Below the pieces are notes generated by a model. The model was given only the letters and a program-made list of their open reading frames with translations, made no database searches and was not told where the DNA came from. Below, piece by piece: positions 3,105 through 23,942 of a stretch of DNA of 64,000 bases. Both the position numbers and the translations under genes were made by a program. Source of the stretch: Dehalococcoidia bacterium (lineage in GTDB: Bacteria; Chloroflexota; Dehalococcoidia; UBA2979); the NCBI GenBank assembly GCA_965237865.1, contig OZ250164.1, forward strand, positions 309,217 through 373,216, in the 5' to 3' direction. Position 1 is the first letter of the stretch. Each line of letters starts with the position of its first letter.

Positions 3105-3920
3105 TTACAGCGCGCGGAAGGTGCGCTTGCCCTCGACGCGCACGATGTGGCCGAAGCCCGGCGCCGGGAAGTGGCAGGCGGCGACGAGGTCGCCGTCCGC
3201 CTCGAGGCGCTCCAGCAGTGCGCTGCGCGTCTCCGCGCTCAGCATGCCGTCGCTGTCGAAGCTGGGGCTCCAGCCGGTCTCCTCGGTCTGCGCCGGGTGG
3301 TGAATCACGTCGCCGAGGATCACGGCCCGCTCGCCCGCCGAGGCGATCACGAAGCTCTGGTGTCCGGGTGTGTGGCCCGGAGTCGGGATCGCCGTAATCT
3401 CGTCGGTCAGCGCGACCTCGCCGGAGACGAGGTCCATCACGCCCAGCGCCTCGAGTGGCTCGATCTGGGCGGTGACGTGCGCCTCGTCGCGGAACTGCTC
3501 CCAGTCCGCCTGCGGCACCACGTAGCGCGCGTTCGCGAACGTGGCCGCGCCGTCCTCGGTGACGCTCCAGCCCACGTGATCGCCGTGCAGGTGCGTGAAC
3601 GCGACGCGCCCGACCGCCTCCGGCTCGATGCCCTGGGCGCGCATGTCCGGCACGAGGTTCCCCGACGCCCCGCCGAGGAAGGCGAAGGGCCCCGGCCCGA
3701 AGCCGGTGTCGATCAGCAGCGTCTCGCCGCCGGAGCGCAGGGCGTAGCACTGTGCGTTCGAGCGCCACGCATCGGCGCTCTCGCCGGAGCCCGGGTACTG
3801 CTCGAAGTAGGGAGCCCACTGCTCGGCGCTCACATCGGGGAAGACGTTGGCGAACGGGAATCCCAGCTCGAGGTCGAGGAGCTGCACGATCTCGACATTG
3901 CCCACGGTGATTGAAGCCAT
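3105..3920 (-). CDS. MBL-fold metallo-hydrolase
   Basis: 271-aa C-terminal part of the 823-aa track ORF; THLHGDHVGW (HxHxDH) and later His/Asp ligands; ATG at 3918-3920 with GGAGG 5 nt upstream. The 823-aa ORF fuses three real genes through low-complexity read-through. Confidence 0.8.
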   Translation of the reverse strand: MASITVGNVEIVQLLDLELGFPFANVFPDVSAEQWAPYFEQYPGSGESADAWRSNAQCYALRSGGETLLIDTGFGPGPFAFLGGASGNLVPDMRAQGIEPEAVGRVAFTHLHGDHVGWSVTEDGAATFANARYVVPQADWEQFRDEAHVTAQIEPLEALGVMDLVSGEVALTDEITAIPTPGHTPGHQSFVIASAGERAVILGDVIHHPAQTEETGWSPSFDSDGMLSAETRSALLERLEADGDLVAACHFPAPGFGHIVRVEGKRTFRAL

Positions 3921-18887: not shown

Positions 18888-20561
18888 ATGACCTTGAGTA
18901 CTATCCCTCCCGCGCTGCTGGCGCTCCTCGGAGCAGTCGTCATCCTGCTGGCTGGCGCGCCAACGGCCCTGCACGCGCAGTCCACACCCTCGATTTCGAT
19001 CGAGCTGTCACCGGGTCAGCACGTCCCGCACACGGTCGCCCTCACGGGCGAGGTGACCCTGAGCAACCTGGCCCCTGCTGACTACTCGATGGTGACGCTC
19101 CGCGCCGACATCACCGGGCACGAGGATCGGACGAGCCACTGCTACGGCGAGGACACCAGCAGCGATATCGAACTCGCGGTGGACGAGAGTCTGGAGGCAG
19201 TAACGCTCAGGCTGTTCAAGCCCTGCACGAATGCCCCGGGCGGATTCGGAACGTATGACTACGCGCTCACGATCAGCGTATCGAGGGCCGATCCGATGCA
19301 GCCCGGCGACACCATCGAGCTGGTATCGATGCACGTGCCCTTCCTGGTGTCGACATACCTGACTCCCGGGGAGCAGACCCTTCCGGCCCCTGATCCCAGT
19401 GCGCTGGCCTGGTTTGACCCGGATCCCAGAACTTCCGCGATGTACGTGGGAGAGTGGCGCCAATTCCGCTTCCGCACGGACATTTCCAGGTATGCCGAAG
19501 ACCATCTGAACGTGTACGTGGACGCCGGCGATCCCGGTGACTTCGTTGCGAGATCGGGCGAAGGTCCTTCTCCCGGCAGCGCCGAGGAAGCCTGCAACGA
19601 CTCGCATCCAACGCAGAACTGGCGTCGTGCCATCCATCAGCCTCTCTGGGTTGTTCCCTGCAAGCCGGGTCCGGCAGTCTTTTGGCTGTCGCACGAGACC
19701 CTGGGCGTGCCGCCCCTCTACACCTACGAATTCGAGGTGTACCCGGCCGACGAATCTCGAGGAGGGCCGATCGTTGGTGGGCCGAGTGGCGGGGGCGGCG
19801 CTCCGCCCTCGTCCGGCCCCACGCCGAGTGGCGGGGGCGGCGCTCCGCCGTCGTCCGGCCCCACGCCGAGCGACGCCGACTTCGCCTGGACCGTCGATAA
19901 GGACATCGACGCGCTCGACGCCGGGAATGACGAGGCGACTGGCCTCTGGGGCGACGGCGCGACGATCTGGGTAGCGCAGAACAGCGACGGCGGCGGCGAC
20001 GGCGTCTTCGCCTACGACCTCGCAAGCGGCGAACGCCTCGAGGATCGCGAGTTCGAACTCGACACCGCCAACCTCGCCCCGCGCGGCCTCTGGTCCAACG
20101 GCGAGACGATCTGGGTTTCCGACAGCGGCAAGGAGAAGCTCTACGCCCACGACCTGGAGAGCGGCGAGCGCCTCCCGGCGCGTGACATCAAGCTCAGCGA
20201 TGCGAACGACGACCCGCGCGGCATCTGGTCCGATCGGACGACGATCTGGGTGCTCGACGACCGCGACGAGAGCGTCTATCTCTACGACCTCGGGAGTGGC
20301 GAGCAGACGGCCGTCTACGAACTCGACGCCGCCAACGACGACCCGCACGGCATCTGGTCCGACGGCGTCGCGGTCTGGGTCTCCAACCACGACCCCAAGC
20401 GGCTCTTCGCCTACCGCCTCGTCGACGACGCCCTCGTGCGCGAGTCAGACGAGGACTTCACGAGGCTGGGCCGGGCCAGCAACAACAGCCCGCGCGGCAT
20501 CTGGTCGGACTACAGCGTGATCTACGTCGTCGACGCCCTGGACGAGCAGGTCTACAGCTGA
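18888..20561 (+). CDS. secreted repeat protein (five ~50-aa beta-propeller-like repeats; Pro/Gly linker duplication)
   Basis: Signal peptide MTLSTIPPALLALLGAVVILLAGAPTALHA-QS. The C-terminal half has five tandem repeats of the form GIWSDGxTIWVxD...YAYDLxSGER. An exact tandem duplication GGGGAPPSSGPTPS x2 lies around 19790-19870. Confidence 0.55.
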   Translation: MTLSTIPPALLALLGAVVILLAGAPTALHAQSTPSISIELSPGQHVPHTVALTGEVTLSNLAPADYSMVTLRADITGHEDRTSHCYGEDTSSDIELAVDESLEAVTLRLFKPCTNAPGGFGTYDYALTISVSRADPMQPGDTIELVSMHVPFLVSTYLTPGEQTLPAPDPSALAWFDPDPRTSAMYVGEWRQFRFRTDISRYAEDHLNVYVDAGDPGDFVARSGEGPSPGSAEEACNDSHPTQNWRRAIHQPLWVVPCKPGPAVFWLSHETLGVPPLYTYEFEVYPADESRGGPIVGGPSGGGGAPPSSGPTPSGGGGAPPSSGPTPSDADFAWTVDKDIDALDAGNDEATGLWGDGATIWVAQNSDGGGDGVFAYDLASGERLEDREFELDTANLAPRGLWSNGETIWVSDSGKEKLYAHDLESGERLPARDIKLSDANDDPRGIWSDRTTIWVLDDRDESVYLYDLGSGEQTAVYELDAANDDPHGIWSDGVAVWVSNHDPKRLFAYRLVDDALVRESDEDFTRLGRASNNSPRGIWSDYSVIYVVDALDEQVYS

Positions 20562-22084
20562 TATGGAGTGACCGGTTGTCAAGCAGCACCGGCGGTGGTC
20601 GTGGCGATCCGGCTCCGGAACGGGGGGAGATGGACGAACGAGGGCGCTGCTTCGACGACGTGTCACTCTGATATTCGCGGGTTGCCTGGGGCCTTGCCGC
20701 ATGACCGTGCTTCGCCGGGAGGGGTCGCCGTCTACGGTCGCGGGTTGACGGCGCCGGGCGCCGCTGCCGCATAGCTGTACCGCGCGTCCTCCTGAGCCTG
20801 CCCTCGCTCATCCACCCCCTCCTGCTCCGGAGCGGCGTATCGCCAGCTCCGCCTTCGCCGCGGACCGCGCGCGTGCTGTCAGGCCGCCGCCTGCTCCCGG
20901 GCGCCGATGTTCAGCACCGCCCACAGGTAACCCGCGAGTTCACGGGCGACGGCCACGTTCGCCACGACCGATGGCTTGCCGTGAGCGGCCAGCCGCCGGT
21001 GGCGGCGATAGAGCCGGGTCTGCGCCCGGTCGGCCAACACCACGGCCCAGCCCGGCTGGCCCTCCCTGCGCTTGCGCAGCGCTGCCCCCACCCGCGGCGG
21101 GTGGCGGTAGTGCCAGGCGCTCTCCACCAGGATGCGGCGCACGTGGCTGTTCCCTGTCTTCGTGATCGGTCCCCGCCGCTGACGGGCGCCGCTGCTGTAC
21201 TCGCTCGGCGTGAGCCCGAGGTAGGACATCAACTGCCGGGCGCTGCCGAAGCGCGTGACGTCGCCGAGCTCGGCCAGCACCGTCATCGCCGTCACCGTGT
21301 CGACCCCGCGGAAGCAGCGCAGCAGCCCCACCGCCTCGCGGTAGTCGTCGCTGGCGGCACACGCGGCCAGTTCCTGCTCCAGCGTGCGCAGCCGCTCCTC
21401 CACGCCCTCGAGCGCGCGCAGGTAGTCGTCGAAGGTGGCCTGCGCGGCCGGGTGTTCGAAGCGCAGCGTCAGCAGCCAGCGGCGGTGCCGCAGCGTCCAG
21501 TTCCGGCCGTCGTAGGCGATGCCGCGCCGCAGCAGCAGCTTCGCCAGGCGGTGGCGCGCCCGGGTGCGGTCGGTCACGGCGTCCTCGCGCGCCCGGCAGA
21601 GGTCGCGCACCGCCTCCTGGTCGATGGTCGGGGGATGCACCGCCGTGAGCAGGTCCGCGCGCAGCAGCTCGGCCAGCTTCCTGGCGTCGCGGCGGTCGGT
21701 CTTGACGCGGTCGCCGGGCCGCCTGGGGATGAGCGCCGGCGCGATCACCTGGCATTCGATGCCCTCGGCCTCGAGCTGGCGCTGCAGCGCGAAGCCCCCC
21801 GGCCCCGCCTCGTAGCAGGCCACGACCGGCCCCGGCGCCATGCGCCGCAGGCGCTGCGCGAGCCGCTTCACCGCCTTCGGCTCGTTCGCCAGCTGCCACT
21901 CCTCGGGCCGCTCGGCCCCCGGCGCCAGCACCGCCACGTGGATCGCCCGCGCGTGTGCATCCATCCCTGCATATGTGGTAGTCATCTTCCTGACCGGCTC
22001 CTTTCGCATGCGGCTCTGCAGCCCTCGCGTCTGTAACCCGCGAGTTTGCGGACTCGGAGCCGGTCACTCCATACGGTCTACAAC
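20562..22084 (-). mobile_element. IS110-family insertion sequence (approximate boundaries)
   Basis: A DEDD transposase gene sits between two unrelated surface-protein ORFs, with a 318-bp non-coding flank on its 3' side and ~75 bp on its 5' side. The 14-mer GTAACCCGCGAGTT occurs at 20927-20940 and 22033-22046. Termini are not defined; IS110-family elements lack terminal inverted repeats. Confidence 0.5.
20879..21985 (-). CDS. IS110-family transposase (DEDD/RuvC-like N-domain plus Tnp C-domain)
   Basis: MTTTYAGMDAHARAIHVAVL... with C-terminal ...ITKTGNSHVRRILVESAWH, typical of IS110/IS1111 transposases. The second in-frame Met was chosen as start. Confidence 0.85.
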   Translation of the reverse strand: MTTTYAGMDAHARAIHVAVLAPGAERPEEWQLANEPKAVKRLAQRLRRMAPGPVVACYEAGPGGFALQRQLEAEGIECQVIAPALIPRRPGDRVKTDRRDARKLAELLRADLLTAVHPPTIDQEAVRDLCRAREDAVTDRTRARHRLAKLLLRRGIAYDGRNWTLRHRRWLLTLRFEHPAAQATFDDYLRALEGVEERLRTLEQELAACAASDDYREAVGLLRCFRGVDTVTAMTVLAELGDVTRFGSARQLMSYLGLTPSEYSSGARQRRGPITKTGNSHVRRILVESAWHYRHPPRVGAALRKRREGQPGWAVVLADRAQTRLYRRHRRLAAHGKPSVVANVAVARELAGYLWAVLNIGAREQAAA

Positions 22085-22726
22085 ATGCCCGACGCCATCG
22101 ACGCCCGGCTCGCCTCGCTGGCGCTGAGCGGCGTGGACATCGGCGAGTTCGACGGCCGCAGGCCGGTGTACGTGGGCGTCCTCGGGGAGGGCGTGAGCGA
22201 GACCACGGTCGAAGCGGAGACGGTCCAGTCCGGCGCGAGCGTCGCGATCACGCCCGCCGACGCTGATGATGACGCGGAGAACGGCCACCAGGCCGCAATC
22301 GAGGATGGCACGGAGATCACGGTCACGGTGACCTCGGAGGACGGTAGCCGGACGCGGGTGTACCGGGTGCGGATCGGCGAGCCGGAAGAAGGCGAGCCGG
22401 AAGATGGCGAGCCGGAAGAAGAGGACCAGGAACCGGGGCGCTCGCCGGAGTGCCTGCGCGGCCTGGTCGCGGGCCGCTTCAGCCTTGTCGTCTACGAGGG
22501 TGGCAGCCTGGCCGACCTCGAGTCCTGTGCGCGGAGCCTGTCGGTGACGGCGCTGTACAGCTGGCAAGACGGCGACTTCGTGCACTACATCCTGGGCGCG
22601 CCGGCGTTCGTGAACGAGGGGTTCGTGGCGCTCTTCCCGGCGGCTCTGCCTCCTGACACCCCGCTGATTGCCCAGCGCGAGCTGCCGCCGCCGGAGGCGG
22701 AAGCCCCCGCAGAGGACTCGCCGTAG
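22085..22726 (+). CDS. cadherin-like beta-sandwich domain protein (possible fragment) with acidic GEPE-repeat linker
   Basis: LASLALSGVDIGEFDGRRPVYVGVLGEGVSETTVEAETVQSGASVAITPAD...GTEITVTVTSEDGSRTRVYRVRI fits the cadherin-like beta-sandwich pattern, followed by the repeated linker GEPEEGEPEDGEPEE. No signal peptide; sits immediately 5' of the IS. Confidence 0.45.
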   Translation: MPDAIDARLASLALSGVDIGEFDGRRPVYVGVLGEGVSETTVEAETVQSGASVAITPADADDDAENGHQAAIEDGTEITVTVTSEDGSRTRVYRVRIGEPEEGEPEDGEPEEEDQEPGRSPECLRGLVAGRFSLVVYEGGSLADLESCARSLSVTALYSWQDGDFVHYILGAPAFVNEGFVALFPAALPPDTPLIAQRELPPPEAEAPAEDSP

Positions 22727-22838
22727 CCCGGCCGTCACGGCTGCGCGCCCGCCGCGGATCGCGTTGACGCTACCGGGGCGCGGGTGGACGATGATTCGGC
22801 CCAGCGCGCCGACCTGAATCCCCATCTCCGGAGGCACC

Positions 22839-23942
22839 GTGAACCTGCGTACGCCGGGTCCGATTCCCGTTCCCGCGGAAGTCGCACAGGCGGGCGTGGC
22901 CCCGATGATCAACCATCGCGGGCCGGAGTTCGCCGAACTGATGGCGGCCCTCGGCGAGGGTCTGCAGTACGCCTACCGCACCGAGAACGACGTGCTCGTG
23001 CTGACCGGCTCCGGCACCTCCGGCATGGAGGCCGCCGTCGTCAACCACATCTCGCCGGGTGATCGCGTGCTGGTGGTCACCGTCGGCGTCTTCGGCGAGC
23101 GCTTCCTGGAGCTGGTCCGCATCTACGGAGGCGATCCGGTGCACCTCGCCTTCGAGTACGGCACGGCCGCCGACCCGAACCGCATCGACGAGGCCCTCGC
23201 CGCCGACGGCGAGATCCGCACCGTGCTGGTCACGCACAACGAGACCTCGACCGGCGTGACCAACCCGCTCGAGGAGATCGCGCAGGTCGTCCGGCGTCAC
23301 GACCGGCTGCTGATCGTGGACGCGATCTCGTCGCTCTCCTCGATCCCGGTGGAGACGGACGCGTGGGGCCTCGACGTGGTCGTGTCCGGCTCGCAGAAGG
23401 GCTGGATGGTCGCGCCCGGGCTCTCCTTCGTGAGCGTCAGCGAGCGCGCGTGGGAGGCGCAGGACCGCTGCACCACGCCTCGGATGTACCTCGATCTGCG
23501 GCGCGCGCAGCGCTCGATGCAGGCCGGCCAGACGCCGTGGACCCCGGCGATCTCGCTCATGTTCCAGCTGCGGCAGGCGCTCTCCATGCTGCGCGCCGAG
23601 GGCATCGAGAACGTCTGGGCGCGCCACCACGACACCGCCGAGCGCGTCCGCGAGGGCATCCGGGAGCTCGGCCTCGAGCTCTACGCCGCCGAGGGCGTCC
23701 GCTCCGACACCGTGACGGCAATCCTGCCGCCGGAAGGCGTCGCCGCGAACGAGCTGCGCGCGATTGCCCGCTCGGACTTCGGGACCGACTTCGCGGGCGG
23801 CCAGGCCAGCCTCGGAGGCAAGATCATCCGCTTCGGCCACCTCGGCTATACGAGCGAGGAGGACGTGCGCGGCGCCCTCGAAGCGCTGCAGGGCAGCCTC
23901 GCGAAGCTCGGCCACGCCCCCGTGGCGGCGGCGAGCGGCTAG
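22839..23942 (+). CDS. class V aminotransferase (serine--glyoxylate / phosphoserine aminotransferase family)
   Basis: 367 aa; VLVTHNETSTGV and VVSGSQKGWMVAPGLS (PLP lysine) match AGXT-type aminotransferases; directly upstream of serA. Confidence 0.75.
   Translation: MNLRTPGPIPVPAEVAQAGVAPMINHRGPEFAELMAALGEGLQYAYRTENDVLVLTGSGTSGMEAAVVNHISPGDRVLVVTVGVFGERFLELVRIYGGDPVHLAFEYGTAADPNRIDEALAADGEIRTVLVTHNETSTGVTNPLEEIAQVVRRHDRLLIVDAISSLSSIPVETDAWGLDVVVSGSQKGWMVAPGLSFVSVSERAWEAQDRCTTPRMYLDLRRAQRSMQAGQTPWTPAISLMFQLRQALSMLRAEGIENVWARHHDTAERVREGIRELGLELYAAEGVRSDTVTAILPPEGVAANELRAIARSDFGTDFAGGQASLGGKIIRFGHLGYTSEEDVRGALEALQGSLAKLGHAPVAAASG

Follow-up and report, generated by a model that had tools for sequence, protein, structure and literature searches.

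The window analysed here, a 64,000-nucleotide stretch of a Dehalococcoidia genome (assembly GCA_965237865.1, contig OZ250164.1), very probably contains, judging from sequence comparison, an intact and probably active insertion sequence (IS) of the IS1111 branch of the IS110 family, which carries a gene for a structured bridge RNA or seekRNA and is inserted in a surface-protein gene. The element belongs to a known kind, the IS1111-type bridge/seek RNA elements, and is not a new kind of system. Its anatomy, the conserved structure of its non-coding end, and the complementarity and co-variation between that structure and DNA are directly established. Across approximately 16–29 subfamilies, each of the four guide segments changes in step with its matching DNA.

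Element ends, core dinucleotide and interrupted gene

The ends of the element were set by comparison with copies in other contexts. Related loci numbered 79 in a scan of representative genomes, nearly all from metagenome-assembled genomes of Dehalococcoidia/Tepidiformaceae and from other uncultured bacteria. A metagenome copy, L001, is 99.8% identical to the window across approximately 1530 bp and resides in an IS1380-family transposase gene. In approximately 25 copies with differing flanks, the common sequence runs from ACCGTATGG to CTCCATATC. Together with two empty-site comparisons, these copies place a complete insertion sequence of 1518 bp, core dinucleotide excluded, at 20560-22077 on the minus strand. 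An earlier sequence-only reading of the window had placed the element at 20562-22084 and had proposed that other copies be used to define its ends; such copies did define them, and the span is corrected accordingly. A core dinucleotide AG (CT on the plus strand) flanks the element on each side, at 22078-22079 between left target and left end and at 20558-20559 between right end and right target, and occurs singly in uninterrupted homologues.

Two empty sites fix this assignment. The joined flanks of L001 read ...LALFTSY-HAF..., whereas uninterrupted IS1380-family homologues (441 aa) read ...LALFTSYSYHAF... (TSYSYHAF). The hexamer CTGTAG (20552-20557), which is constant after the right end and adjoins the right core in host DNA coding ..Y-S.., is target DNA, because the join of the L001 flanks would otherwise omit SY. 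The core is limited to the 2-bp AG because both the IS1380-family homologues (TSYSYHAF) and the orthologues of the window host gene (YSYNMPD) are uninterrupted. In both comparisons, insertion was site-specific and without duplication beyond this core, as expected of the IS110 family. A first model of the ends, in which GTAG or a direct repeat TGTAGACC served as core or duplication and the element spanned 20552-22081, was ruled out by the same TSYSYHAF and YSYNMPD homologues. Just inside the ends lies a perfect 14-bp inverted repeat, TATGGAGTGACCGG (I13), which the sequence-only reading had overlooked. Its left copy (22060-22073, minus strand), 4 nt from the element end, is kept across copies, and its right copy, CCGGTCACTCCATA (20562-20575, minus strand), lies 2 nt from the other end. 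Subterminal inverted repeats of 7–17 bp with short terminal extensions are a trait of IS1111 elements (PMC11187229).

When 20560-22079 is excised in silico, the flanks form a single secreted open reading frame (ORF) of 773 aa that reads ...DEQVYSYNMPD... and aligns end to end with an uninterrupted orthologue, P0241 (744 aa, 83% identical, ...DEKIYSYNMPD...). As judged by this alignment, the element split one secreted propeller/cadherin-like gene at ...EQVY/SY/NMPD..., and the window insertion site is ...GTTGT-AG-CTGTAG.... The 5' part, coding a secreted repeat/propeller protein, occupies 18888-20559, and the 3' part, coding a cadherin-like domain (Pfam Cadherin-like) and the C-terminal region, occupies 22080-22726, both on the plus strand. 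The sequence-only reading had placed the element between two surface-protein ORFs and had recommended comparison with an uninterrupted allele. The disruption that it suspected is borne out by the orthologues reading YSYNMPD; however, the two ORFs are halves of one gene split in frame, and they should be annotated as one pseudogenised gene. A tandem Gly/Pro-rich linker (GGGGAPPSSGPTPS twice; 19700-19860, local GC up to 0.75) also separates the N-terminal domain of the host protein from its propeller-like repeats.

The same codons of the IS1380-family transposase gene (TSY/SY/HAF) are the site of most copies of the window subfamily (L001, L006-L009, L025, L079 and L011), and a string coding the same YSY (GT-AG-CTGTAG) is present in the window host gene. 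In nature, this subfamily mainly targets another insertion sequence. Truncated relatives were observed as well: in L002 the similarity stops inside the right end just past the RNA core described below (approximately position 3377 onward), and in L026, L070, L022 and L047 the transposase gene lacks its 3' part. All five are decayed or rearranged copies.

Transposase

The element encodes a DEDD transposase, or bridge recombinase, of 368 aa at 20879-21985 on the minus strand. The ORF extends over 20879-22009, and an upstream ATG at 22009 would yield 376 aa; the start at 21985, with the N-terminus MTTTY, is that of identical database proteins. One of these, P0001, is 100% identical to the window transposase and represents a cluster of 16 member sequences. 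Residues 14-160 match DEDD_Tnp_IS110 (PF01548, the RuvC-like DEDD domain; E 1.7e-20), and the C-terminal part, which carries the Ser-Gly of the G--P----SG motif, matches Transposase_20 (PF02371; E 2.9e-22). These matches confirm the earlier identification of a DEDD transposase of the IS110 family. Homology extends to the ISCro4 (E 2.5e-13) and IS621 (E 2.6e-12) proteins of the PDB, with both of whose chains the Transposase_20 region aligns. The translation contains GLTPSEYSSG, which has the GL-P----SG form of IS1111 transposases (PMC11187229). Placement in the IS1111 branch is suggested by this motif form, the subterminal repeats and the layout of the non-coding flanks.

A predicted structured RNA in the downstream flank

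The non-coding flank downstream of the transposase gene (20560-20878, 319 nt) lies wholly within the element, and 92 nt of non-coding sequence precede the MTTTY start. A long non-coding region downstream, as here, is characteristic of the IS1111 subgroup, whose seekRNAs carry the match to the top strand 5' of the match to the bottom strand (PMC11187229); for IS1111 elements, a right-end location of the bridge RNA has likewise been predicted (PMC11208160). The sequence-only reading had given approximately 75 bp upstream and 318 bp downstream; the asymmetry stands, with the lengths revised. It had also allowed that the longer flank might prove to be host DNA. This is overturned by L001, in which the flank is 100% identical in another context, and by its conservation in dozens of copies.

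Within the flank, a block of approximately 150 nt is conserved even where transposase identity falls to only 45–60%. The RNAalifold consensus of 22 diverse sequences contains two internal loops enclosed by stems, each with an inner stem (UGCGG/CCGCG) and a hairpin. In the specified structure, 94.2% of cells are paired, as against 30–48% with slid partners, and compensatory changes occur in 13 pairs (0/500 shuffles attained the observed values). A covariance model, R1, was built from the same alignment. Its sole match in the window (20649-20794, minus strand; 157.3 bits, E 1.5e-30) delimits a predicted bridge/seek RNA core of 146 nt, with two internal loops closed by stems, and all of its 84 matches in related loci lie downstream of, and co-oriented with, a transposase gene. 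A co-oriented, conserved structured RNA in the long non-coding end is a defining property of bridge RNAs and seekRNAs. Outside the core, the arms of a basal helix lie at 20800-20833 and 20612-20645 (the 34-nt inverted repeat I1). A basal helix of 20–35 bp was present in 29/29 families examined, with unrelated sequences, and this conservation, I1 and a minimum free energy z of -3.5 outline an approximate long RNA form at 20596-20849 (minus strand), the ends of which are predicted. The model thus predicts that the 3' flank encodes a structured RNA of approximately 150–250 nt of the bridge-RNA/seekRNA kind.

Guide segments co-vary with target and donor DNA

Guide segments were read off the covariance-model alignment. 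In the target-binding loop, the 5' side, GUACAGCUA (20772-20780, minus strand), is the reverse complement of T-AG-CTGTAC, that is, of core and right target, and agrees at 7/8 positions with AG-CTGTAG. The 3' side, ACCGU-AG-AC (20730-20738, minus strand), has the sense of left target and core followed by the start of the left end, and agrees at 4/7 positions with GTTGT-AG. The donor-binding loop, also on the minus strand, matches the element's own ends. Its 5' side, AAGCACGGUCA (20702-20712), contains the guide ACGGUC (20703-20708), which is the reverse complement of core-G and the left-end start ACCGT (6/6) and can pair with the top strand there; its 3' side, AAUAUCAGAGUGACAC (20660-20675), contains the guide AUAUC-AG (20668-20674), which has the same sense as the right-end terminus and core (7/7).

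These matches were compared across natural variants by shuffling guide sets among them 20000 times; target guides were represented by 24 variants, and the comparisons overall by approximately 16–29 subfamilies or variants. The target 5' guide matched the right target at a mean of 4.64 of 6 positions, against 1.55 in shuffled sets, and the target 3' guide matched the left target at 3.04 of 5, against 1.99; in both cases 0/20000 shuffles attained the observed value. The donor 5' guide matched the left-end start at 3.58 of 5 positions (shuffled 2.97; 4/20000 attained the observed value), and the donor 3' guide matched the right-end terminus at 4.67 of 5 (shuffled 4.14; 0/20000). Individual families follow the same pattern. 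For the 5'-side variants CTGTA, GTGTA, GGTGAG, CAGGCT, TGTCCT, GTCCCG, CCAGG and TCAGTA of the target loop, the right flank matches each, and the donor guides track right ends ATATC, ATACA, ATACC and ATATG and left ends ACCGT, ACCCT, ACAGT and ACCAT. A first loop whose strands are complementary to both target strands, overlap at the core and co-vary with the target, and a second loop that complements the junction of the two element ends, are the properties by which bridge RNAs and seekRNAs are recognised. With the compensatory changes in the stems, this co-variation bears out the earlier suggestion that the long flank is the place to look for such an RNA.

Three other assignments were considered and rejected. 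GGCC-CCA-GGC (20684-20695), a variable stretch, forms the loop of a hairpin whose length varies; GAGUGAC beside the donor guide, a candidate guide to the inverted repeats, is constant where the repeats differ; and the target 5' guide had the appearance of a donor guide only under the first model of the ends, with its GTAG or TGTAGACC core. In a distant subfamily (L069, L071 and L076), the right junction reads AC and the left AG, and the 5' target guide correspondingly carries AC and the 3' guide AG. This suggests that only the first base of the core is shared there, or that a core mismatch is tolerated.

Several observations weigh against the reading of the element as an IS1111-type system guided by its own RNA. 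The left-target guide fits natural left flanks only in part (2/5 plus the core in the window; a mean of 3.0/5 over variants), so target choice seems to rest mostly on the core and the right target. In several families, the same single mismatch, opposite position 4 of the left end, recurs in the donor 5' guide. A permissive search of 19500-23500 with Rfam 15, a check that the sequence-only reading had proposed, returned only chance-level matches (E 0.78–6) and none at the RNA locus; scans for sigma-70-like promoters and intrinsic terminators in or beside the element found none. The transposase, at 368 aa, is longer than the 330–350 aa of IS1111 transposases (PMC11187229), and the RNA transcript, its ends, its processing and its binding to the protein are predictions only.

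Given the uneven strength of the co-variation, it could be argued that only the target-binding half works, as a short seekRNA, the second loop being structural and the protein reading the ends through the 14-bp subterminal repeats. An 82-nt seekRNA with target matches sufficed for ISEc11 (PMC11187229), the near-invariant donor loops give weaker co-variation (3.58 against 2.97, and 4.67 against 4.14), and the GAGUGAC motif does not co-vary with the repeats. However, the donor loop follows the ends where these differ, on the right (ATACA-AG, ATACC-AG and ATATG-AG) as well as on the left (ACAGT, ACCCT and ACCAT), and the donor permutations (0/20000 and 4/20000) make this explanation unlikely. That the window copy is an inactive fossil is suggested by its being the single copy in 64 kb and by the failure to detect a promoter; this too appears rather improbable, given that the ORF, both ends and the four guides are all intact and self-consistent, that a 99.8% identical copy occupies another site, that copies 96–97% identical occupy several sites in related genomes, and that the P0001 cluster counts 16 member sequences.

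The flank might, alternatively, be merely a structured 3' untranslated region (UTR), a terminator or a decayed remnant, with the protein and the inverted repeats alone choosing the target. The processed RNA is a prediction, a long GC-rich basal helix could stabilise or terminate a transcript, and the left-target guide fits natural sites poorly. A terminator, however, needs no two loops with four strands co-varying with target and ends over 16–29 variants, and no T-tract terminator was found in the scan. Moreover, in the L029-L039 family the RNA core retains 77–81% nucleotide identity, against approximately 72% over the coding region. We therefore consider this explanation very improbable, and an RNA with both a target-binding and a donor-binding loop remains the preferred reading of the flank.

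Comparison with known systems and proposed mechanism

The element shares most of its organisation with the IS1111 seekRNA elements ISEc11, ISKpn4, ISPst6 and ISPa11 (Siddiquee et al. 2024, PMC11187229): a DEDD transposase with GL-P----SG, subterminal repeats with short terminal extensions, a long downstream non-coding region, an RNA whose top-strand match lies 5' of its bottom-strand match and overlaps it at the crossover, and orientation-specific insertion without target duplication. It differs from them in its Chloroflexota host, its 368-aa transposase, its target (..GT-AG-CTGTAG..), its explicit second donor loop that co-varies with the ends, and its basal helix of 20–35 bp; it is also known here from sequence alone.

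The bridge RNA of IS621 (Durrant et al. 2024, PMC11208160; Hiraizumi et al. 2024, PMC11208158) likewise has target and donor internal loops, each reading one strand on either side of a 2-bp core, and serves a homologous recombinase; when read on the plus strand of the window, the CT core and the guide geometry are those of IS621. However, the window RNA is encoded downstream of the gene, in the right end, whereas that of IS621 is encoded in the left end, and the order of top- and bottom-strand guides within each loop is reversed relative to the direction of the transposase (PMC11187229, PMC11208160). The inverted repeats are 14 bp, against 2–3 bp in IS621, and the 3' target guide runs on into AC, matching the left end, which would be a possible handshake-like extension. 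A third relative, ISPpu9 of Pseudomonas putida, is an IS110-family element that also recombines at an AG dinucleotide (PMC12288879).

By analogy with IS621 and IS1111 elements (PMC11208160, PMC11208158, PMC11187229), the element would leave its site as a circle in which AG links the right end to the left end. The predicted junction reads ...CTCCATATC-AG-ACCGTATGG..., i.e. ...CCGGTCACTCCATATC-AG-ACCGTATGGAGTGACCGG.... In an RNA-loaded recombinase tetramer, loop 2 would then hold this junction, the donor, while loop 1 would hold a matching target; exchange of strands at the AG (CT) core would insert the element in a single orientation, duplicating nothing but the 2-bp core. A TTGAC(A) box (TTGACA at 20576-20581 on the minus strand in the window) is conserved in nearly all families, in the right end and 17 nt before the core, and may be the -35 element of a circle-junction promoter; a search by eye found no acceptable -10 element across the junction.

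The transposase leader

The sequence-only reading had reported a 14-mer, GTAACCCGCGAGTT, repeated in direct orientation. Both positions are correct: exact copies lie at 20927-20940 and 22033-22046, and no other site in the window matches even with 2 mismatches. In a shuffle control, the mean was 0.18 matches, and 1/100 shuffles gave 2. The reading had further held that absence of the 14-mer from other copies would count against it, and here the two sites part ways. The upstream copy is a conserved motif of the transposase 5' UTR, AACUCGCGGGUUAC (22033-22046, minus strand), kept in nearly all families as UCGCGGGUUAC and followed by a variable hairpin and then by CAGAGCCGCAU(G/A)C before the Shine-Dalgarno sequence. 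The other copy (20927-20940, minus strand) lies in the codons of ARELAGY, and in sister subfamilies the amino acids ELAGY are kept while the synonymous sites change (CTT GCG GGC, CTG GCG GGC). Since these sites are not kept, we judge the direct repeat to be a coincidence of a conserved leader motif and a conserved peptide. Although an exact 14-nt repeat within 1.1 kb is improbable by chance and its upstream copy is conserved, a functional pair of sites within the element, such as transposase-binding or recombination sites, is hardly credible, because the synonymous positions of the coding copy vary in subfamilies with 86–95% identical proteins and a better account of the upstream copy is that it forms an arm of a conserved 5'-UTR module mirroring a bridge-RNA stem.

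The module consists of two motifs. AACUCGCGGGUUAC is complementary to AACCCGCGA of the inner stems of the bridge RNA, and a second conserved motif, CAGAGCCGCAUG (22007-22018, minus strand), directly upstream of the Shine-Dalgarno sequence, is complementary to CAUGCGGC of the same stems. Taken together (22007-22046), the two motifs repeat the inner module (CAUGCGGC-hairpin-CAACCCGCGA) in inverted orientation, so that their complementarity extends to both strands of that module; the second of these stretches reaches 14 nt in L064. RNAduplex predictions that paired the 5' UTR with the RNA core, run alongside shuffled controls, gave z from -0.3 to -3.5 and long, spurious GC-rich duplexes, and carry no weight as evidence for antisense pairing. 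Possible modes of action of the leader motif are pairing with the bridge RNA, formation of a stem-loop of its own, a role at the DNA level, and an antisense transcript. It is conceivable, though we regard it as doubtful, that translation of the recombinase is set by pairing of the transposase mRNA leader with the bridge RNA, or with a left-end antisense transcript mimicking the bridge module. If so, this would constitute an autoregulatory link between the levels of guide RNA and enzyme that is not yet described for IS1111 elements; in the papers that were consulted, no description of a link between a leader motif and a bridge-RNA module was found. In ISPpu9, small RNAs are complementary to the transposase 5'-UTR region, and translation is limited by 5'-UTR structure (PMC12288879). 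The window element resembles it in having RNA complementary to transposase 5'-UTR sequences, but there the RNAs are a separate antisense RNA, Asr9, and the small RNA Ssr9, borne on a miniature inverted-repeat transposable element, whereas here it is the stems of the bridge RNA that are predicted to be complementary to the element's own 5' UTR.

A further pairing was observed in the leader. UGACCGGCUCC overlaps the left inverted repeat and GGAGCCGGUCA holds the Shine-Dalgarno sequence (22056-22066 and 21991-22001 in the window, minus strand); the two are perfectly complementary and co-vary across families, e.g. GAUCGGUCUC/GAGACCGAUC and GGUCGGGCUC/GAGCCCGACC. This looks like sequestration of the ribosome-binding site in transcripts that start outside the element.

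A homing element and tandem RNAs in related families

Two further arrangements were observed among the relatives. A 1506-bp element of the IS110 group (L011, 3327-4832), with a 419-aa DEDD transposase and a long 5' non-coding region, occupies an identical position, between GGCAACCCG and CGAATATCAG, in six copies (L011, L014, L025, L018, L021 and L080) that represent at least 4 subfamilies and two genomes. This position lies in the DNA coding the donor loop of the bridge-RNA gene, and the 5' non-coding region of the 1506-bp element holds GATATTCGC, which matches its target. It is an insertion sequence homing into the guide-RNA gene of another element.

A sister family (L029-L039; 61% identical, approximately 1.98 kb, 9–11 copies) carries two tandem bridge-like RNAs, for example at 3213-3358 and 3594-3739 in L030, which are 87.5% identical to each other. 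Only the donor guide of the second RNA (AUAUG-AG) fits the family's own right end (CCATATG-AG), and the 'target' loop of this RNA (AUAUC-AG / G-GUUCCGU) is similar to the right junction of the element itself. This second RNA may have a specialised role at that junction, i.e. in excision.

Implications

Our analysis contributes a well-resolved, naturally occurring bridge/seek RNA system of the IS1111 type, from Chloroflexota, in which the ends, core, target and four guide segments were all assigned by comparative data alone. The approximately 25 natural guide variants reveal which positions are reprogrammed in nature, and a covariance model is supplied for an RNA family outside Rfam. The family also offers compact candidate recombinases from high-GC Chloroflexota genomes. 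Furthermore, the mirror module in the 5' UTR, the insertion sequence homing into a bridge-RNA gene and the tandem RNAs provide leads on the biology of bridge-RNA elements.

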